Origin: a virus
Virus genome (UHGV): UHGV-1885740
Strand: one strand, 5' to 3'
Length of the DNA stretch: 14,785 bases
Shown one piece after another: positions 1,176 through 10,210 of this stretch. Below the pieces are notes generated by a model. It was not told the DNA's origin. It did not search any database and worked only from the letters and a program-made list of their open reading frames with translations. Positions within the stretch are counted from its first letter, which is position 1. The number at the start of each line of letters is the position of its first letter. A program made the position numbers and the translations under genes.

Positions 1176-1204
1176 GCCCCGCCATTGTGCGGGGCTTTTT
1201 ATTT
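1176..1204 (+). terminator. intrinsic terminator
   Basis: Stem GCCCCGC/GCGGGGC with loop CATTGT followed by TTTTTATTT, 9 nt after the stop at 1167. Confidence 0.8.
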
Positions 1205-2398: not shown

Positions 2399-2451
2399 AA
2401 AACTCAAGGGGCAAGACGTTTGCCCCCACACAAAACAAAGAGGAAAACATC

Positions 2452-2832
2452 ATGAAAAACACTACTAAAGCTATTGACACCGTTATGTTTAACCTGGTTA
2501 CCTTTCGCGAGGATATGAAAGATCTTCCACGTGAAACAGTGTGCGATCACATTGAAAACTATCGCAAACTAATCAAAGAGTTGCCTTTAAAACGTGACCA
2601 GTATGCGGCTAACGCCATGCTTAATGCCATGATCAAAAAGATGATTCAGTGTGATTTAACTCTGGCCTATGACTATGCGGGTGGTCGTTTTGCAGTATAC
2701 AATCAGCCCGTGCCCGGTATGGGCACCACCGAAGAATTGCACGCGCTCAATCTAAAACAAGACGTATGGGATAACATGCCCCGCGTGGTGGTGTGGGCAG
2801 AAAGCGGAAAGATTTACGGCGATAATTTTTAA
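2452..2832 (+). CDS. hypothetical protein (126 aa)
   Basis: ATG with AAAGAGG 2437-2443; ORF track. Confidence 0.8.
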   Translation: MKNTTKAIDTVMFNLVTFREDMKDLPRETVCDHIENYRKLIKELPLKRDQYAANAMLNAMIKKMIQCDLTLAYDYAGGRFAVYNQPVPGMGTTEELHALNLKQDVWDNMPRVVVWAESGKIYGDNF

Positions 2833-2841
2833 TCAGGTAAC

Positions 2842-2867
2842 AGGCGGCATATTTGCCGCCTTATTGT
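2842..2867 (+). terminator. probable intrinsic terminator (weak U-tract)
   Basis: Stem AGGCGGC/GCCGCCT with loop ATATTT followed by TATTGTT; 10 nt after the stop at 2832. Confidence 0.5.
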
Positions 2868-2896
2868 TAAACAGAACTGCAAAAGAGGTACATAGA

Positions 2897-3268
2897 ATGG
2901 AATTTATTATTTTGGCTGTAGTAGTTGCCTTGTTCAACGCCTGGATCGCTGGCAAGATGGGTAGATCCGCCTTTTTATGGTTTATTATATCTATTTTCCT
3001 GGGGGTGGTTGCAACTATTGTACTTGTTATCCTTGCAATTGTTGACAAGGGGAATAATAGAAAGGGTAAAGTATTTTCAGACCTGTACGACGCTCAAACG
3101 TTTGTCAACGCCTATTATAGTGATCTTCCAGTCTCCCTACGCTGCAGCCTGGCACAACAAGTTTTCGATGAGGCTAAAACCAGAGATCAAGCCCATGAGA
3201 TATGTTTAACTGAGGCGGATCGCCTATTTGAGAGGAATAGAAAATATGTGGGCCAACCGTTTAAATAA
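2897..3268 (+). CDS. hypothetical membrane protein (123 aa, two N-terminal transmembrane helices)
   Basis: ORF-track frame 2864-3268 begins at TTG; ATG at 2897 has AAGAGG (2883-2888) 8 nt upstream; helices IILAVVVALFNAWIA and FLWFIISIFLGVVATIVLVILAIV. Confidence 0.7.
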   Translation: MEFIILAVVVALFNAWIAGKMGRSAFLWFIISIFLGVVATIVLVILAIVDKGNNRKGKVFSDLYDAQTFVNAYYSDLPVSLRCSLAQQVFDEAKTRDQAHEICLTEADRLFERNRKYVGQPFK

Positions 3269-3491
3269 TGCCACGTTAATTAATCCCTTTAGTGAAGATT
3301 TGAAGCCAGCCGCCTGGCGTGATGGATTCAATAACGAACGCTTTATTTTCAAGCCTGATCTTGAGGAATTTTATAACAATGGATCGAACAACAGCGGAGA
3401 TAATTTTTCTTGGGATGTGCGTGGTGATGGTACTCCTGGGGGCCATTGTAGATCGCGTCACTACTACCAGAAGGAAAGGGGGAGACGATGA
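3246..3491 (+). CDS. hypothetical protein (81 aa)
   Basis: ORF-track frame 3228-3491 begins at TTG; ATG at 3246 follows GAGAGGAA; its stop overlaps the next ATG as ATGA (3488-3491). Confidence 0.5.
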   Translation: MWANRLNNATLINPFSEDLKPAAWRDGFNNERFIFKPDLEEFYNNGSNNSGDNFSWDVRGDGTPGGHCRSRHYYQKERGRR

Positions 3492-3607
3492 CAACCAAGG
3501 ATAAGCCATGCACCGATAAGGTGCGCCGCGTTATGGTATGGCTTGAGATTATCGCCCTTGAAATATTGCTAGGCGTAGGGATGTACTTTATCGCTGTAAG
3601 TAACTAA
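3488..3607 (+). CDS. small membrane peptide (39 aa, MTTKDKPCTDKVRRVMVWLEIIALEILLGVGMYFIAVSN)
   Basis: Below the ORF-track size cutoff; ATG preceded by purine-rich AAGGAAAGGGGGAG; ATGA overlap with the upstream stop; terminator follows 5 nt after its stop. Confidence 0.45.
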   Translation: MTTKDKPCTDKVRRVMVWLEIIALEILLGVGMYFIAVSN

Positions 3608-3611
3608 GAAC

Positions 3612-3640
3612 GGCCCCCGATCATGGGGGCCTATCTTTTA
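3612..3640 (+). terminator. intrinsic terminator (A11 run follows, possibly bidirectional)
   Basis: Stem GGCCCCC/GGGGGCC with loop GATCAT, then TATCTTTT and AAAAAAAAAAA (3640-3651). Confidence 0.75.
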
Positions 3641-3665
3641 AAAAAAAAAAATTACTTCCGGGGTG

Positions 3666-3694
3666 TTGCAATCCGGTCCGGAATGTGGATAATA
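3666..3694 (+). promoter_or_regulatory. sigma70-like promoter (TTGCAA-17-ATAATA)
   Basis: TTGCAA 3666-3671, ATAATA 3689-3694; 5' hairpin GGGGA/TCCCC at 3704-3718; AAAGGAG before ATG at 3750. Confidence 0.7.
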
Positions 3695-3749
3695 ACAATC
3701 AACGGGGAGCTAATCCCCACCACCACAAAAACCAGAAAGGAGAAACAAA

Positions 3750-3950
3750 ATGAGCAACAATATCCGCGTTATTAACTTCAAAAAAGAAGAAAAAATTGCC
3801 GTGCTGATTGACGGTCAAGAAATCTTCAAGGGCGACTATGAAGATCATCAAACGGCGATTAGTATCACTCGCGTGATTGGTTACCATAATTTTTACCCTC
3901 AAGGCGCTGAGGCAGCAGTAAAACGAATTAAGGAGATTGTAGGCCTGTAA
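3750..3950 (+). CDS. hypothetical protein (66 aa)
   Basis: ATG with AAAGGAG 3736-3742; ORF track. Confidence 0.75.
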   Translation: MSNNIRVINFKKEEKIAVLIDGQEIFKGDYEDHQTAISITRVIGYHNFYPQGAEAAVKRIKEIVGL

Positions 3951-3952
3951 AA

Positions 3953-3997
3953 TTTATTTTTAGATGGCCTTGACTCCAGGGCCATCAATAAAGTAAA
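3953..3997 (+). repeat. 45-bp direct repeat, copy 2 (promoter-like; TTGACT 3970-3975)
   Basis: Identical to 218-262; starts 3 nt after the stop at 3950; upstream of CDS 4042-4341. Confidence 0.8.
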
Positions 3998-4041
3998 TTT
4001 AAACCCTGTTAAAATAATCAGTGCAAAAAGGAGTAATGATC

Positions 4042-4341
4042 ATGTTTATCCAGGCTAATAATCTTTATTTCTTTGATGGTCAGATCGTAGACGGCGTGGA
4101 GGTGGAAATCACCGGGTGCCCTGGCGGTCAGGTTATGACTTTTCGGAATAATGCCTTTGATGATTCTCATATCGTTATGAGAATGGAAGTTAGTAAGCTG
4201 GATGACAAGAAAACACTTATCGACTATTCCGTCAAAGATCATCCAGACTACCACATGATCTATGGTGATTTGTGCATTGTTGACCGTGACAAGGTGGGCG
4301 GCATTGTGATCGCTATTGTGAACGATGTTTTCTCAAACTAA
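4042..4341 (+). CDS. hypothetical protein (99 aa)
   Basis: ORF-track frame 4021-4341 begins at GTG; AGGAG 4029-4033 gives an 8-nt spacing to the ATG at 4042 (the ATG at 4036 is only 2 nt away). Confidence 0.7.
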   Translation: MFIQANNLYFFDGQIVDGVEVEITGCPGGQVMTFRNNAFDDSHIVMRMEVSKLDDKKTLIDYSVKDHPDYHMIYGDLCIVDRDKVGGIVIAIVNDVFSN

Positions 4342-4358
4342 TTTCAGCAGGTGATTTT

Positions 4359-4439
4359 ATGAAAGTAAAACTATATTACCTTAATGAGCTTAACCCCCTT
4401 GCCCAGGTCCGCGCCCTGGCAGGGCCTGCAGCGATATAA
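4359..4439 (+). CDS. possible short ORF (26 aa, MKVKLYYLNELNPLAQVRALAGPAAI)
   Basis: ATG 5 nt after AGGTGA; ends 6 nt before a strong terminator; contains a CAGGGCC palindrome; could be a leader peptide or non-coding. Confidence 0.25.
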   Translation: MKVKLYYLNELNPLAQVRALAGPAAI

Positions 4440-4445
4440 TCACAT

Positions 4446-4479
4446 AAAGGCTATGCGGTTGCATAGCCTTTATTATTTT
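4446..4479 (+). terminator. intrinsic terminator
   Basis: 11-bp stem AAAGGCTATGC/GCATAGCCTTT with loop GGTT, followed by ATTATTTT. Confidence 0.8.
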
Positions 4480-4526
4480 AGCGTTACAGCGGCCCCAAGG
4501 CGCTTAAAAAATTTTTAAAGAAGTAC

Positions 4527-4555
4527 TTGCATCAAGTCCTACAATATGGATAATA
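4527..4555 (+). promoter_or_regulatory. sigma70-like promoter (TTGCAT-17-ATAATA) with AT-rich upstream element
   Basis: TTGCAT 4527-4532, ATAATA 4550-4555, upstream AAAAAATTTTTAAAG; 5' GC hairpin at 4566-4579; TAGGAG before ATG at 4612. Confidence 0.7.
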
Positions 4556-4611
4556 GGACGTGTCAGGGGGGCGGCCCCCAATCATTAACCGGATAGATAG
4601 GAGTTAAAATC

Positions 4612-4896
4612 ATGGCTATTGTCACCGTTGGCGATGTAGTGGAAATGGAAGCAAAATACTTAAAAGCGGGTATGCATATCCTACGGAATGATCAAGAATT
4701 GTTATTAACGATGGTAGACTATAATCCCGGCCAGGATTATCCAAGCATCGACTACTTTTTTGAGTATGTTGATGAAGAATTGAAAGAGGATGAGGCTTAT
4801 CAGGGTGAATTCTGCAATTTCTTTTGCCCTGATGAGGTTGTAAAAGTTATCTATCAACCTGGCGTACCTTTCCCGCTGCACGCTATCAATAAATAA
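4612..4896 (+). CDS. hypothetical acidic protein (94 aa)
   Basis: ATG with TAGGAG 4598-4603; ORF track. Confidence 0.8.
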   Translation: MAIVTVGDVVEMEAKYLKAGMHILRNDQELLLTMVDYNPGQDYPSIDYFFEYVDEELKEDEAYQGEFCNFFCPDEVVKVIYQPGVPFPLHAINK

Positions 4897-4950
4897 ACCT
4901 GGCGGGGCCGAAAAGGCCCCAATTATGAAAATAAAGAGAGGTAAATCATC

Positions 4951-5184
4951 ATGATGGAACAAATTAAACGCGCTGAGGCTATTAATGGCAATGTGATCTA
5001 TTTTGTCAGCAAAAACGAAAAAGGCGTACCATATGCGGCGGTAATAGTACAACCTGACGGCGATTATTGGTTTACTGTATACGGATCTTATTCTTTTGGG
5101 CGTCCAGTGCATGATAAAATTTTGAAAGTAGCGAACCCTACCGGGAAAAATATCACAGCAGAAAAATTTTTTGAAAATAGTTGA
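4951..5184 (+). CDS. hypothetical protein (77 aa)
   Basis: ATG with AGAGAGG upstream; ORF track; its TGA stop (5182-5184) sits inside the -35 hexamer of the next promoter. Confidence 0.75.
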   Translation: MMEQIKRAEAINGNVIYFVSKNEKGVPYAAVIVQPDGDYWFTVYGSYSFGRPVHDKILKVANPTGKNITAEKFFENS

Positions 5185-5209
5185 CATGACCATATAAGAC
5201 TGTAGTATA
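5181..5209 (+). promoter_or_regulatory. sigma70-like promoter (TTGACA, -10 TAGTAT/AGTATA)
   Basis: TTGACA 5181-5186, -10 around 5203-5209; 5' hairpin GGGGC/GCCCC at 5220-5234; AAGAGG before ATG at 5261. Confidence 0.65.
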
Positions 5210-5260
5210 TAAATCAAAGGGGGCAACAAGCCCCACCAACCACAAAGAGGATAAAAAATC

Positions 5261-5440
5261 ATGGCTATTATTGCAAAGACTGAGATCGTAGGCTTAGATT
5301 CTATTCTTCTCGCATATGAGGAAGCTATAGAAATGTATGTGGTTTCCTATGGTGAATATATCCGTGAATATAAATCTATTGATCTAGCTTTTGAATGTTA
5401 TATTCGCCAGGTCAATAAAGCATATGATGATTATCGTTAA
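5261..5440 (+). CDS. hypothetical protein (59 aa)
   Basis: Below the ORF-track cutoff; ATG with AAAGAGG 8 nt upstream; own promoter and 5' hairpin; ordinary codon usage. Confidence 0.65.
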   Translation: MAIIAKTEIVGLDSILLAYEEAIEMYVVSYGEYIREYKSIDLAFECYIRQVNKAYDDYR

Positions 5441-5446
5441 AATAGT

Positions 5447-5474
5447 TTGACAACAGTCAACAATCTGGTAAAGT
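5447..5474 (+). promoter_or_regulatory. sigma70-like promoter (TTGACA-16-TAAAGT)
   Basis: TTGACA 5447-5452; -10 TAAAGT 5469-5474; 5' hairpin GCGGGAA/TTCCCGC at 5487-5503; GAGGG before ATG at 5523. Confidence 0.6.
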
Positions 5475-5522
5475 GTACTACATAGCGCGGGAATACTTCC
5501 CGCCATTAATGAGGGTAGAATC

Positions 5523-5627
5523 ATGTTAGATAAAATTTTCACGGTTGTAGTAGTTGGCCTGGCATTATCGGTTGGAGTGGTTGCAACTATGGCTAACATG
5601 ATCCTATCTTCCCATGGTATCGGTTAA
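5523..5627 (+). CDS. small hydrophobic peptide (34 aa, MLDKIFTVVVVGLALSVGVVATMANMILSSHGIG)
   Basis: Not in the ORF track (too short); has its own promoter, 5' hairpin and GAGGG 7 nt upstream; a single predicted transmembrane helix. Confidence 0.5.
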   Translation: MLDKIFTVVVVGLALSVGVVATMANMILSSHGIG

Positions 5628-5637
5628 GGTGAATCAA

Positions 5638-5853
5638 ATGATCACGAATAAGACAGGTAAAACGGAATTCTTGCGAGGCTTGCAGATCGGCAAGCCAGAG
5701 ATCTGGCATTGCACTAAAACACCACGTGACGAAATGAAAGACTTCACCGCCACGCTGCAACGGGTAAAGATATCCATCACGCAGAAAAAGGCCTTGATAG
5801 TGGTGGAAGGTGAGATCCCGCAAACCGTTGTTATAGTTGAGCGTACAGCATAG
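5638..5853 (+). CDS. hypothetical protein (71 aa)
   Basis: ORF-track frame 5614-5853; ATG at 5638 is 5 nt after AAGGTGA (5626-5632), whereas the ATG at 5614 has no Shine-Dalgarno site. Confidence 0.6.
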   Translation: MITNKTGKTEFLRGLQIGKPEIWHCTKTPRDEMKDFTATLQRVKISITQKKALIVVEGEIPQTVVIVERTA

Positions 5854-5944
5854 TTTAATTTATAGCGATACCTGAAAATTAACCAATAAATCATAAACAG
5901 GCGGTTACCGCCGCCTTAAACGTAGCAGAAAGAGGCTAGACACA

Positions 5945-6229
5945 ATGAAAAAGATGATCGCAGTAGTTGCCCTGGTTGTTGGACTTAATGCGCCTGTAAT
6001 GGCTAAAGAGCTGGCAAAAGAGGTTAATCTAACGGATATCCATGCCGTCAATCAAATCGGGGTTACTTATCGCTTATGCCTTGCCGCTAAAACTTTTAAT
6101 GACGGCACAACAGAGTACTACGGATTCGAGGGTATCCGGTGCGGTGAGCTTGCTCGCGACCTTAAGGAAGATCCAGACCTGGAAGATCTGCCCATCACCG
6201 TAAACGGTAAAGCTTACGTAAACCGTTAA
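5945..6229 (+). CDS. hypothetical secreted/periplasmic protein (94 aa, N-terminal signal peptide)
   Basis: MKKMIAVVALVVGLNAPVMA followed by KE looks like a Sec signal peptide with an AxA-type cleavage site; no lipobox cysteine; AAAGAGG upstream. Confidence 0.75.
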   Translation: MKKMIAVVALVVGLNAPVMAKELAKEVNLTDIHAVNQIGVTYRLCLAAKTFNDGTTEYYGFEGIRCGELARDLKEDPDLEDLPITVNGKAYVNR

Positions 6230-6231
6230 CC

Positions 6232-6366
6232 ATGAGAAAGATAATCATCACCTTGGGGATTGTGGCTGGATCGCTGGCGCTCTTTCCCCTTATGGTTAGG
6301 TATGTGCTAATCAGTATTGTCCTGGTAGTCAGTGATCTATTGGGAACGGTTGGCACCTTGTTTTAA
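6232..6366 (+). CDS. small membrane protein (44 aa, two hydrophobic segments)
   Basis: ATG 2 nt after the upstream stop, no obvious Shine-Dalgarno site (coupling assumed); MRKIIITLGIVAGSLALFPLMVRYVLISIVLVVSDLLGTVGTLF. Confidence 0.4.
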   Translation: MRKIIITLGIVAGSLALFPLMVRYVLISIVLVVSDLLGTVGTLF

Positions 6367-6377
6367 AGAGCGATAAA

Positions 6378-6569
6378 ATGAATATCGAACAAGTTAGAAA
6401 GGTATTGGCGGTACTGCGTTATCATAATCATAGAAAGGTTATAGACGATCCTGATTATGTTGATTCAAGTCTGGAAGGGGATACACTGCAAGCCATAAGC
6501 AACATGCAAGAATTGCTCAAGCGCATGACAGAGAAAAACCGACCGGACTACATAGGCGAAAAAATATAA
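6378..6569 (+). CDS. hypothetical protein (63 aa)
   Basis: ATG with AAAGAG upstream; ORF track; terminator 17 nt downstream. Confidence 0.65.
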   Translation: MNIEQVRKVLAVLRYHNHRKVIDDPDYVDSSLEGDTLQAISNMQELLKRMTEKNRPDYIGEKI

Positions 6570-6585
6570 TCCTTATAAACTACAA

Positions 6586-6614
6586 AACAGGGCTTGCAAT
6601 GGTCCTGTTTTTTG
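6586..6614 (+). terminator. intrinsic terminator
   Basis: Stem AACAGGG/TCCTGTT with loop CTTGCAATGG followed by a T6 run. Confidence 0.7.
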
Positions 6615-6697
6615 TTATACTTGTTTCACGGCAGGCACCTGGCGACGGGTGGAGACAATCACCGGGCCTGCCTGTCATATAAGAACTATAAAAACCG

Positions 6698-6726
6698 TTG
6701 ACATCTGCCATGGGGTGGGGTAACAT
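6698..6726 (+). promoter_or_regulatory. sigma70-like promoter (TTGACA-17-TAACAT)
   Basis: TTGACA 6698-6703, TAACAT 6721-6726; 5' hairpin GGGCA/TGCCC at 6738-6751; CAGGAGAGAGG before ATG at 6781. Confidence 0.7.
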
Positions 6727-6780
6727 TTATCTTGAAGGGGCAAAAGTGCCCACACAATAACCAGGAGAGAGGAAAACACT

Positions 6781-7053
6781 ATGTCAAGCTGGATTAATCA
6801 AGAAGTCGAATCACGTTTTAATGCTATTTGGGATCTCATCGAAAAAGAAGACGGCACATCAAGCCCCTACCTCAACAATTTGGAATTCCATTTTGTGGAA
6901 GCGATGAACGCAGAACATGATCACGAAGGTGGCGCGGATGAGTTCGCTAAAGGTTATGGCTTTAACAATGCCAACGAAATGATCGAGGCGGTCGTACTCC
7001 AGGCTGAGGAAGATTATCAATTAAAAACACTTGAATTCTGCCGCCATAAGTAA
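6781..7053 (+). CDS. hypothetical acidic protein (90 aa)
   Basis: ATG with a purine-rich Shine-Dalgarno site; ORF track. Confidence 0.8.
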   Translation: MSSWINQEVESRFNAIWDLIEKEDGTSSPYLNNLEFHFVEAMNAEHDHEGGADEFAKGYGFNNANEMIEAVVLQAEEDYQLKTLEFCRHK

Positions 7054-7059
7054 TAAGAT
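7031..7059 (+). promoter_or_regulatory. sigma70-like promoter (TTGAAT-17-TAAGAT), overlapping the 3' end of CDS 6781-7053
   Basis: TTGAAT 7031-7036, TAAGAT 7054-7059; 5' hairpin GGGCC/GGCCC at 7068-7081; AGAGAGAAAG before ATG at 7114. Confidence 0.55.
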
Positions 7060-7113
7060 AATGACACGGGCCAAAAGGCCCACTAATCAGAACCACACAA
7101 AGAGAGAAAGAAA

Positions 7114-7332
7114 ATGACAACCCGTAAAATTAAAGTTGTTTGCATTGAATCGACTGGGGGCGCTTTTGTAGTTGGTCAGGAATATAATGCGGTTTTAATG
7201 GGTACGGATTGGAAGGTTAAAGGCCTTAATGGTTACGAGTACGGCACTACTTGCGGCTTGCGTGGTCGAATCGGATACGTGAGTTTAGACAATAAAGAAA
7301 AATTTGTTTTCGACACCGTTGTGAGTAAATAG
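7114..7332 (+). CDS. hypothetical protein (72 aa)
   Basis: ATG with a purine-rich Shine-Dalgarno site; ORF track. Confidence 0.75.
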   Translation: MTTRKIKVVCIESTGGAFVVGQEYNAVLMGTDWKVKGLNGYEYGTTCGLRGRIGYVSLDNKEKFVFDTVVSK

Positions 7333-7691: not shown

Positions 7692-7717
7692 AGGGGCTTA
7701 AAGCCCCTTTCTTTTTG
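7692..7717 (+). terminator. intrinsic terminator closing the rightward gene module
   Basis: Stem AGGGGC/GCCCCT with loop TTAA followed by TTCTTTTTG. Confidence 0.8.
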
Positions 7718-8322
7718 TCTCCTCTTTTCCTACCACAAATGGCCCCGCCTGGCAAATGGAATAATCAACAAGCCAGCAATTAACCCCACTGTACAAACAT
7801 ACATATAAAATAACTATTGCATAATTTTTCATTGTGTGGTAGCAGGGCCATTTTTACACGTTTTTCCTTCCAAAATTGCACGTAATGCAGCATTTGCACA
7901 AAATTTAACCTGATGCATATCTTCAATAGCTTGTCAACAACTAAAAATTCTTATAAGTCATACACTTACATAACTACAAAAGCGTTTTCTACGTGAAAAA
8001 TCGAGTATAACTATAGCCGCCAGATCTCAGAATTTACGTACGCTCGCCATTCTATAGCCTGCTAAGCATTTATTCCAACCATAGAATAACGGAATAGTCA
8101 ATACCTGCATAAAATAATTATTCGTGTAAACTGCATAACATAAATCGGCCCAAGTGTCAACATTTTTCGTAAACAGTCTGGAATTGTCACGTTAGGTTAC
8201 CATAAGCAGAGAAATCTTTAGTCGTCTAATGTTTACTGTACGTTACTATACTAACTGGAATCATTAGATGACTAATAGAAAGATAAGAAATAATTAACAA
8301 TACAATTATTCTATCTGTAACA

Positions 8323-8593
8323 ATAAGGCAACTATGCAAACGAATGGCATGGCGCGACGGAGTCGCGACATAATATAAAAGCAGTAACCATCACCCCCGT
8401 GATAGTTTGTCTGCAATCTATTAATCAGATCATAGTTGCCTTGTATTCAGTTAATCATGACATAACAAGCAAGGCAACTATAGATCTGCTAATAGTTGCC
8501 CTGCTTTTATATTATGTCATGCTAATTATAATCAGTGCGATTATTGTCATGTATAATTATTGTCATGCAAACGAATGGCATGGCTTATCATTT
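8323..8593. repeat. nested inverted/direct repeat element (about 270 bp)
   Basis: AAGGCAACTAT at 8325-8335 and 8471-8481, with inverted copies at 8432-8442 and 8492-8501; 18-bp direct repeat TGCAAACGAATGGCATGG at 8335-8352 and 8566-8583; 18-bp perfect inverted repeat 8367-8384 / 8501-8518; palindrome CGCGAC-GGA-GTCGCG around 8354-8368. Confidence 0.8.
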
Positions 8594-8610
8594 TTGAGTA
8601 AATAATCTAT

Positions 8611-8716
8611 ACGTTAACAGTAAGCTATGTAAACTATTGGGAATGTAAACAGTAAAGGTCATGAACAGTAAGCGAGCGAATAGTAATAGCGTGAATAGTG
8701 ACAGCGTAAACAGTCA
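8611..8716 (+). repeat. tandem iteron-like array (about 7 units, 15-16 bp period, core GTAAACAGT / GAAYAGT)
   Basis: Cores at 8614, 8629, 8645, 8661, 8677, 8692 and 8706; further isolated copies in both orientations at about 8169, 8843, 8989 and 9719. Confidence 0.75.
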
Positions 8717-9298
8717 TGCATGTCAATTATGTTCAGTGTGTTTAATGTGCTTAAAGTGTCATATTATGTCAGACAAGTTTTTCTCCTCTTTGTCAAGTGC
8801 TGCATGAAAAATTTACAAGCTTGTATGGTAGCATTTTTGCGGCCCTGTTTACATTCAGTGTTGTATGTATAATCCTTGTTGTGTGGGCGTTTAGACGTCT
8901 GGACGGTCAGAAGTCTGCAGGTCAATATCTAATCTATTGGCTGCTAACTATATCCCCCCACAAATAATAAGAAATATAATTGTTATGTGCGTAAACAGTA
9001 ACCTATGTTATCAATCCCTGTATGTATCGCCAGTGGTGCGCATAATGGGTATTATGTTAAATTGCCCGTAATGATAAAGATTCTCACAATGATAGGTATT
9101 CTCATTCACCCTCACAAAATAGATTGCAAATGTTGTGCCACTGTGTGAACGGCCTCACCTATTAATTTGCCTCACTGCCTCGATATTTGAGAATTATTAT
9201 AAGAATGAGAAGTATTCCCATTCCGTCCGCCTGGCAGCACTCCAGTCGCTACCGCTCATGACAGGGCAGAACTGGGCCCATTCAGATATTTCTGACTG

Positions 9299-9567
9299 AC
9301 TCTTCAGGTCTGTGTGGGAAAAGACAACCTCTCCGGCGGGACAGGGGGATATCTGAGGAGAAATTGCAGGTCAATTAAAAAATTTACGTGGTGTATGAAG
9401 CGATCTTCAGGCAAGGTATGTATTATGGGATGAAACCCTCTTCAGGCAATGATATTTGTGGGTGTGATATTTGCTGGAAAGCCAGATATGACGGGACTCC
9501 CGGCGGGGCAGGGGTAGTACAGACAGGGAAAATATGGGGATGTAGTTGGGTAAATTGATCAGGCAGG
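9299..9567 (+). repeat. cluster of CTCTTCAGG-family motifs plus a GC-rich direct repeat CCGGCGGG(R)CAGGGG
   Basis: CTCTTCAGG at 9300-9308 and 9438-9446 (also 9850-9858 and 10500-10508); GATCTTCAGG 9402-9411; GATCAGGCAGG 9557-9567; CTCCGGCGGGACAGGGGG 9331-9348 against CTCCCGGCGGGGCAGGGG 9497-9514. Confidence 0.7.
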
Positions 9568-10210
9568 TAGAGTATGGAATATGTTACAGGTATGTTAAAT
9601 AGGGAGGCTGAATATCTGTAGGATTTGTGTGTAAAATCAAAGACTTAAGTGGTGTTGCGGTATTTTCTATAAATAATTCAAGTTTAATAGGTAATATTTG
9701 TCTCTATTCGCTTTGTGTGGTAAACAGATTCAGATGAGATTGGTTTACAAGTGTATACATAATATACAAATTAAAGATACAAGAAACCCCCTCCCCCTTC
9801 GGCTACCATTCACCTTTTCCTCTGACTGGTACTTAAACACTTATTCAGACTCTTCAGGTTATCACCCATATATCATATGGCAGTGACTGGTGTCCTCCGG
9901 CCCCTCTTTCGTCACCCGTCCGCTTCGCCATGCTAATGCCATAGCCAATGGTTCGGTTGTTCACCCTGTTCACTCAGGTGTATCTCCATACCCCTTCAAA
10001 CCGAAGAGAACAGAAAACCCGAATTACTCGGTAAAAGAAAAGAGAAGAACTTAATTTTATCAGGATAGGCAAGAATGTCAAGGCATGACTGCTCACTAAA
10101 CAAGCAAACAGTCATGTGTGGAAGGTAAGTGATTGTGGTGGTGGGAAATTTAGTTGAAAGATGTGTTATAGGTGCGCTTCCAGCACTTTGGCCGGGCAGC
10201 TAATTGTGCG

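Follow-up and report, generated by a model that had tools for sequence, protein, structure and literature searches.

The stretch of 14,785 nucleotides (nt) from the virus genome UHGV-1885740 that was analyzed in this work (the window) belongs to an rV5-like coliphage (Vequintavirus). Its plus strand carries, at positions 5523–5627, a gene of 34 codons that encodes the peptide MLDKIFTVVVVGLALSVGVVATMANMILSSHGIG, ends with the stop codon TAA (5625–5627) and sits within a long series of small plus-strand genes of unknown function. The original prediction for this locus, made from the letters of the window, described a TTGACA promoter, a 5' hairpin, a GAGGG Shine-Dalgarno site, an ATG and an open reading frame (ORF) of 34 amino acids (aa), and all of these elements were found in place. 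We describe an uncharacterized gene among the small early phage membrane proteins, with an expression unit that is generic and exchangeable.

Conservation and reach of the 34-codon gene

Matches to the 1.4 kb around the 34-codon ORF were obtained in 237 phage records, where the best one, Escherichia phage PMBT16 with 99.1% identity, is followed by many Vequintavirus genomes and then by Stephanstirmvirinae (phi92-like and phAPEC8-like phages) at 80–90%. The ORF itself occurs as two alleles. The window-type allele was found by tblastn at full length in 157 phage records, with 73–100% amino acid identity, and the rV5-type allele, MKQKLIDAVILVIALGIGLIATMSNMILSSNGIG, which is 53% identical to the window peptide, accounts for 72 further records. 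Together the two alleles are present in 229 records, a number near the 237 that share the region at all. The length is fixed at 34 codons in both alleles, and the positions of the ATG, the Shine-Dalgarno site and the stop codon coincide in all aligned relatives with the one exception of Serratia phage KKP_3264. In that genome, an extra A in the A-run at codons 3–4 leads to a frameshift of the gene, which could be either a homopolymer sequencing error or the mark of a pseudogene.

For divergent pairs of sequences, the ratio of nonsynonymous to synonymous substitution rates (dN/dS) ranges from 0.08 to 0.24, and the constraint is distributed unevenly along the peptide. Within codons 21–34, the proportion of nonsynonymous differences (pN) is 0.06 and that of synonymous differences (pS) is 0.50–0.64, giving a pN/pS of about 0.1. 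The last 14 residues, A-T-M-(A/S)-N-M-I-L-S-S-(H/N)-G-I-G, are thus almost invariant over a segment in which 50–64% of the synonymous positions differ. Codons 2–20 have a pN/pS of 0.47–0.61, and the replacements there are confined to hydrophobic residues. When 31 distinct variants were compared, residues M1, K4, A21, T22, I27, L28, G32, I33 and G34 remained unchanged, and V9, G18, M23, N25 and S29 were each altered in just one variant. Judged by these comparisons, the 34-codon ORF is a real gene under purifying selection, with the protein-level constraint strongest in its last 14 codons, and the retention of frame, length, start and stop across 157 and 72 records is conservation far beyond chance. 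The original prediction had let the gene stand or fall with the conservation of its frame in relatives, and the frame was found to be conserved.

The gene is already catalogued. The peptide matches the profile of phrog_14631, a family of unknown function, with an E-value of 7.7e-22 and 78 bits, residues 1–34 aligning with profile positions 1–34 of 34, and identical or near-identical sequences have been deposited as hypothetical or uncharacterized proteins. Members in GenBank include FV3_00160, HdK5_00006, PMBT16 XCD29170.1, A51.2 USL84978.1 (named 'putative membrane protein') and the C-terminal 34 residues of ORF173, the rV5 counterpart of the gene. ORF173 is annotated with 46 aa, which is too long; many other genomes give the rV5-type allele at 34 aa. 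Several other deposited or predicted versions are overlong as well (39–61 aa), starting at upstream in-frame codons and reading through the hairpin and the Shine-Dalgarno site. It is the ATG aligned with position 5523 of the window that represents the conserved start. In phi92, phAPEC8 and many other records the gene was left unannotated, and many genomes list it as a hypothetical protein.

Wider searches led back to the same two alleles. A phmmer search against 1.84 billion representative proteins gave two hits, both from the phrog_14631 family, and no remote homologue. A degenerate motif scan of IMG/VR yielded three true hits (again the two alleles) together with three chance hits and no outside homologue, and a longer motif scan of metagenomes gave five hits, all to these alleles and on rV5-like or phi92-like contigs. 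The matches of the motif scans are located on contigs of 137–153 kb or on short fragments. Nothing significant was found for the peptide or the ORF in Pfam, NCBIfam, PDB and Rfam, where the Pfam family YbgT_YccB (CydX family, PF08173) missed its threshold with 11 bits versus a cut-off of 26.2 (E = 0.47) over residues 11–23 only. The gene that follows the 34-codon ORF encodes a 71-aa protein and extends to Certrevirus and Seunavirus phages of Cronobacter, Pantoea and Salmonella. A positional homologue of the peptide gene upstream of this 71-aa gene was considered for CR8, GAP31, a PVP-SE1-like Salmonella phage and TH18 and was rejected, since the 42–76 nt available there leave no room for it. 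It appears that the peptide does not occur beyond the Vequintavirus and Stephanstirmvirinae lineages that infect E. coli.

Promoter, hairpin and exchange of the surrounding cassette

The 59-aa gene upstream ends with TAA at 5438–5440, and an A/T-rich junction extends from there to 5446, directly before the −35 element. The predicted sigma-70-type promoter (5447–5474, plus strand) is composed of the −35 element TTGACA (5447–5452), a 16-nt spacer, a TG at 5466–5467 and the −10 element TAAAGT (5469–5474), which amounts to 10 of 12 matches plus an extended −10. Transcription would be expected to start at about 5480–5482. A perfect 7-bp hairpin, GCGGGAA-TAC-TTCCCGC (5487–5503, plus strand; −10.9 kcal/mol, z = −2.0), begins 13 nt past the −10 element and has no T-tract behind it. 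The sequence CCATTAATGAGGG (5503–5515, plus strand), a short repeat common to adjoining cassettes, includes the Shine-Dalgarno site GAGGG (5511–5515), which is separated from the ATG at 5523 by a gap of 7 nt.

Altogether, 11 promoter-like sites of equal strength were counted in the window, compared with 5.6 ± 2.4 in Markov-1 simulations, of which 3% reach 11. All 11 sites are oriented as the local genes, and the site at 5447 is intergenic. Of 15 aligned relatives, 11 still have a −35 element, in at least three different cassette sequences. The promoter is degenerate in rV5 and absent directly upstream of the ORF in phi92, MiataMamis and FV3.

The hairpin position before the ORF is occupied by at least five unrelated hairpin sequences across the phages (the fifth in L028), and four of them, when folded, gave −10.9 to −14.9 kcal/mol. 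Within the window, a perfect GC-rich hairpin was detected at 10 of 20 plus-strand gene starts, compared with 15 of 216 coding control windows (Fisher p = 2.6e-6). The plus-strand gene starts with such a cassette are those at 2452, 2900, 3750, 4612, 4951, 5261, 5523, 5945, 6781 and 7114, all in the region 2400–7115, and an eleventh, imperfect copy of the hairpin precedes the gene start at 1739. Most of these hairpins are of the GGGGC...GCCCC type; they end 19–38 nt before the ATG and often stand behind TTGACA-type promoters. For the promoters at 5181, 5447 and 6698, and imperfectly for that at 1654, the hairpin begins 11–13 nt after the −10 element.

Two roles for the hairpin at 5487–5503 were rejected. 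As a standard intrinsic terminator it lacks the T-tract, and terminators with T-tracts exist elsewhere in the window (1176–1195 and 6584–6611). A leader that sequesters the Shine-Dalgarno site finds no support in the 80-nt fold, which does not surpass that of shuffled sequences (z = −0.68). Most likely, the hairpin serves the cassette rather than this particular gene. It could attenuate read-through from upstream or stabilize the mRNA end; at its predicted distance of about 5–7 nt from the 5' end of the transcript, it could protect the mRNA.

Comparison with relatives revealed how the parts of the locus have been exchanged. In PMBT16, the promoter and hairpin of the window precede a different ORF of 45 aa (MKTFNATAS...), and a second promoter with another hairpin precedes the 34-codon gene. 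What distinguishes the two genomes here is an insertion/deletion (indel) of exactly 221 bp, flanked by two copies of CCATTAATGAGG(G), with the 45-aa ORF and the second promoter and hairpin inside it. The repeat copies lie at 2105 and 2326 of the PMBT16 locus (region 2105–2338), and the window has a single copy (5503–5515), which is the crossover point. In UPEC06, the 45-aa ORF is found downstream of the peptide gene instead (positions 1319–1456 of the UPEC06 locus), so that the gene order has been shuffled. A51.2 and Mangalyan have the cassette of the window behind another upstream gene, with the junction in the A/T-rich stretch before the −35 element, and in FV3 the junction falls inside the promoter. 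Across FV3, A51.2, phi92 and MiataMamis, the cassette junctions lie in the A/T-rich part, within the promoter or at the hairpin. The upstream gene, promoter, hairpin and downstream gene all vary between phages, and the peptide is constant; in evolutionary terms the peptide gene is, by this comparison, a module of its own and not a private transcription unit.

On its downstream side, the gene is linked to the 71-aa gene (5638–5853, plus strand; ATG at 5638), a member of phrog_5988 of unknown function. The stop codon TAA overlaps the Shine-Dalgarno site AAGGTG of this gene (5626–5631, plus strand), which suggests translational coupling between the two. Wherever an aligned relative carries this downstream gene, the overlap is preserved, with either TAA or TGA as the stop codon. 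Neither a promoter nor a hairpin or terminator separates the two genes, and the first T-tract terminator on the plus strand after the ORF is that at 6584–6611. The 71-aa gene very likely shares a transcript with the 34-codon gene. In phi92, arall and UPEC06, other genes replace the 71-aa gene right after the stop codon. The original prediction had presented a stand-alone peptide gene with a complete expression unit and a dedicated promoter and hairpin. The elements of the unit are all there, but the gene does not stand alone, its stop codon lying inside the Shine-Dalgarno site of the gene to which it is joined, and the promoter and hairpin are not dedicated: in PMBT16 they precede a different ORF, the promoter is missing in three relatives, and the same layout recurs at half of the plus-strand gene starts as a repeated, exchangeable cassette.

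A comparable arrangement is known from T4-like phages, in the form of the PeSLs (promoter-early stem-loops). Their A/T-rich DNA holds an upstream stop codon and is followed by a strong sigma-70-like promoter; a GGGG...CCCC stem-loop takes one of several positions, and the cassette ends in a Shine-Dalgarno site and an ATG. PeSLs recur through variable regions, where recombination between cassettes gives rise to insertions, deletions and replacements (Arbiol et al. 2010, PMC2839356; PMC4122927). They have been described in RB49/phi1, T4/PST and KVP40/nt-1 (PMC2839356, PMC4122927), and in RB49 such stem-loops lowered read-through in a reporter assay (PMC2839356). The window cassette follows the same order of elements, with TAA at 5438–5440, AATAG, TTGACA-16-TAAAGT with TG, a GC stem-loop, and then the Shine-Dalgarno site and the ATG, and the location of its stem-loop 'downstream of the −10' is one of the five described PeSL classes. 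Like the PeSLs, it is repeated through a block of small genes of unknown function, and the indels and replacements among the relatives have their crossovers either in the A/T-rich part or in the segment from the −10 element to the Shine-Dalgarno site. Unlike the PeSLs, it belongs to a Vequintavirus genome, and its hairpin lies 12–13 nt past the −10 element and so probably within the transcript. Because the phage is not T4-like and the cassette is known from sequence alone, we refer to the window elements as PeSL-like and would not place them among the described PeSL set. The 221-bp indel has the form of an event of the PeSL recombination kind. In the literature searched, PeSLs were described for T4-like phages only and none was reported in rV5-like phages, and PeSL-like cassettes in Vequintavirinae and Stephanstirmvirinae may be unreported so far.

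In rV5, the corresponding run of genes falls within the proposed transcription unit 'genes 10-1-238-164', and sigma-70-type promoters are found genome-wide (PMC3606486). No lysis genes were recognizable near the ORF, the neighbors within several kb all being small hypothetical genes; the rV5 lysin is gene 89 (PMC3606486), far from this gene. The early block also encodes other small membrane or secreted ORFs (3488–3607, 6232–6366, 5945–6229, 2900–3268 and 627–980). Among them are a 39-aa ORF with a hydrophobic helix at its C-terminal side, a 94-aa protein bearing a classical signal peptide (MKKMIAVVALVVGLNAPVMA), two larger proteins with helices at the N-terminus and a very hydrophobic 44-aa ORF, apparently the counterpart of rV5 ORF170 as judged by length (135 nt) and position only. 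Farther downstream, the region of about 7700–10100 between convergent plus-strand and minus-strand gene blocks holds few ORFs and is A/T-rich (GC content of 0.35 at 7800–9000). It contains an exact 20-nt direct repeat (8334–8353 and 8565–8584) and an exact 18-nt inverted repeat (8367–8384 and 8501–8518), and Rfam and tRNA scans of it found nothing. The rV5 paper shows a 'non-coding' box for this region, and PMBT16 has about ten tiny annotated coding sequences, which are probably over-calls. As a further observation, GenBank records of the MG0656xx series ('Campylobacter phage C12, C14, A150, ...') are 88–100% identical to this coliphage region; their genomes are of the size of rV5-like or phi92-like phages, and the labels that name Campylobacter jejuni as the host look doubtful.

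Putative role of the peptide in the inner membrane

The peptide has a grand average of hydropathy (GRAVY) of 1.54 and a hydrophobic run that covers residues 5–28, and the summed Hessa free energy of residues 5–23 is −0.7 kcal/mol. AlphaFold2 predicts a single helix of residues 2–31 with a predicted local distance difference test score (pLDDT) of 92.6, in agreement with the original description of the product as essentially one transmembrane helix. The tail, SSHGIG or SSNGIG, is free of Lys, Arg, Asp and Glu. None of the 31 variants has a cysteine and hence the lipobox Cys of the Llp-/Cor-type exclusion proteins and of o-spanins. Residues T22 and A/S24 fit the −3/−1 rule of signal peptidase and the conservation begins at A21, yet the hydrophobic run goes on to L28.

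With somewhat better than even confidence, we favor the view that the gene encodes an early, single-pass inner-membrane microprotein whose C-terminal block binds a membrane partner. Under this model, host RNA polymerase would transcribe the gene soon after infection from the sigma-70 promoter of the repeated cassette, and the transcript would bear the GC hairpin near its 5' end and run on into the 71-aa gene. The peptide would insert with the invariant Lys4 on the cytoplasmic side, which would bring the conserved C-terminal half into the outer leaflet and to the periplasmic face of the inner membrane. There it would act by binding a membrane-embedded partner, probably without making pores. The partner could be a host inner-membrane protein, as for MgrB and AcrZ and as assumed for T4 Ac, or alternatively, following the example of T4 Imm, the apparatus with which a second infecting phage penetrates the membrane. 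The gene is kept in nearly all members of the group despite its shuffled neighbors, which argues for a function needed in E. coli.

Several points weigh against this model. The promoter match by itself is within chance expectation, and the promoter is not preserved in all relatives, as described above for rV5, phi92, MiataMamis and FV3. About 5–7 unpaired nt before a 5' stem-loop may be too many for protection of the mRNA. The conservation of the peptide is block-wise, and the data do not support a helix with a single binding face: a conserved stripe of A14, G18, T22, N25, S29 and G32 was considered and rejected, the helical moment of variability over the 31 variants being not significant (permutation p = 0.40). 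The only topology cue is one invariant lysine, Lys4, which is offset by Asp/Glu3 in the window-type allele. The searches by sequence, motif and profile returned no homologue beyond this phage group to hint at a function, and no transcriptome or ribosome-profiling papers were found for the group.

A narrower form of the membrane-partner model is superinfection exclusion, in which the early inner-membrane peptide would block genome entry of a second rV5- or phi92-like phage, for example via the channel of the tape measure protein. We consider this specific form rather unlikely. It is in line with the early-type promoter and the predicted inner-membrane location, and the mechanism of T4 Imm provides a precedent (bioRxiv 10.64898/2026.03.06.709160). 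The distribution of the gene also fits: nearly all phages in a group of contractile-tailed coliphages have it, and their Cronobacter and Salmonella relatives do not. However, the peptide shows no sequence similarity to Imm or other known exclusion proteins, and Imm is longer and has two helices.

A second alternative, doubtful in our assessment and of lower standing than exclusion, departs from the membrane anchor altogether. Residues 1–24 would form a Sec-type signal peptide, with a lysine in the n-region, a hydrophobic core and the c-region A21-T22-M23-A/S24, and signal peptidase I would free a decapeptide, NMILSS(H/N)GIG, to serve as a signal in the periplasm or to act on a target there. 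The conserved block has A21 as its first residue, position 24 is only Ala or Ser and position 22 always Thr, as the −3/−1 rule predicts, Gly18 is nearly invariant, and the N-terminal part varies while staying hydrophobic in the manner of signal peptides. The rV5-type allele (MKQKLID, 13 hydrophobic residues and ATMS/A) resembles a standard 24-residue signal peptide, and the absent helical periodicity fits too. On the other hand, the mature part would open with the hydrophobic NMIL, the unbroken run of 24 residues (5–28) is of the kind seen in membrane anchors rather than in cleaved signals, the n-region carries no net positive charge in the window-type allele, and a mature product of 10 residues would be unusually small. 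The full claim, that the 34-mer is a pre-peptide and not an anchor and is cut after A/S24 to free NMILSS(H/N)GIG as a phage effector or signal, is a little less probable again; if true, the pre-peptide would be a very small secreted product of a virulent Gram-negative phage.

Equally doubtful as the signal peptide is a membrane-damaging agent of the type I toxin-like, viroporin-like or holin-like kind, which would oligomerize and depolarize or permeabilize the inner membrane for host shutdown or lysis timing. Size and hydrophobicity resemble those of type I toxins (PMC2887945), and the conserved Asn25 and small helix residues could drive self-association. Against this, the antisense RNA of a type I system has no visible source: no minus-strand promoter-like site was found within or downstream of 5523–5627, the nearest ones (5453 and 5395) point away, and Rfam gave nothing. 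The peptide has no charged C-terminal tail, it is encoded among early-type genes with no lysis gene nearby, and early depolarization would harm a phage with a long replication program. The original prediction had listed host-membrane toxins, inhibitors of membrane transporters or sensors, superinfection-exclusion factors and holin/antiholin-like modulators. This list is a generic menu that is not resolvable from sequence, and within it the toxin option is weakened by the missing antisense promoter and the holin/antiholin option is disfavored by the uncharged tail and the distance to any lysis gene, gene 89 of rV5 included.

It is very improbable that the ORF is a translated leader only, with ribosomes reinitiating at the overlapping site of the 71-aa gene and a functionless peptide. 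The stop codon does overlap the downstream Shine-Dalgarno site in most relatives, but the last 14 residues are conserved while synonymous sites change, a substitution pattern that largely refutes this explanation; the ORF is also intact in phi92, arall and UPEC06 despite a different downstream gene, and the 71-aa gene occurs without the ORF in Certrevirus and Seunavirus phages. Finally, a chance ORF, or an antisense ORF at 5384–5599 as the real gene, can practically be dismissed: the antisense frame is open in all relatives, but rV5 and UPEC06 lack its start codon and every cassette swap alters its downstream part, and the start, stop and Shine-Dalgarno site of the sense ORF are fixed in 229 records.

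Comparison with known small membrane proteins

Small early membrane proteins of virulent phages are a poorly charted class, and the few with a solved mode of action, such as T4 Imm and PhiNM1 Gp11, turned out to have precise targets in the host or in a phage. The rV5-like and phi92-like phages have found wide use in therapy and biocontrol cocktails, and the peptide is a reasonable candidate for deletion or target fishing. The PeSL-like build of the early region would explain its mosaic gene content and is relevant to the engineering of such regions. The locus does not open a long-standing question and will be unsurprising to the specialist.

Among known systems, the type I toxins (Hok, TisB, Ldr, Ibs and ShoB; PMC2887945) are similar in size, hydrophobicity and the presence of a structured 5' leader. 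Like them, the product is a hydrophobic peptide of less than 60 aa with one predicted transmembrane helix; unlike them, it is encoded by a virulent phage and predicted to share a transcript with its neighbors. Holins and antiholins are set apart by a neighboring lysis cassette and a charged, hydrophilic C-terminal tail, neither of which is found here. The bacterial small regulators MgrB, AcrZ, MgtS, SgrT, KdpF and CydX have about 30–50 residues and one transmembrane helix and bind a larger membrane protein. The peptide shares their size and single helix; it has no sequence relationship to them and is phage-encoded.

Among phage proteins, three invite comparison. The tape measure protein is the reported target of T4 Imm (bioRxiv 10.64898/2026.03.06.709160), AcrAB-TolC is the assumed target of T4 Ac (PMC13250531), and both MurG and DivIC are bound by PhiNM1 Gp11, a small membrane protein made early (PMC11237401). 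The peptide has no detectable homology to these three proteins and is shorter, with one helix; small and early as they are, they act by protein contact in the membrane, which is the mode of action that we would propose for the 34-codon gene.

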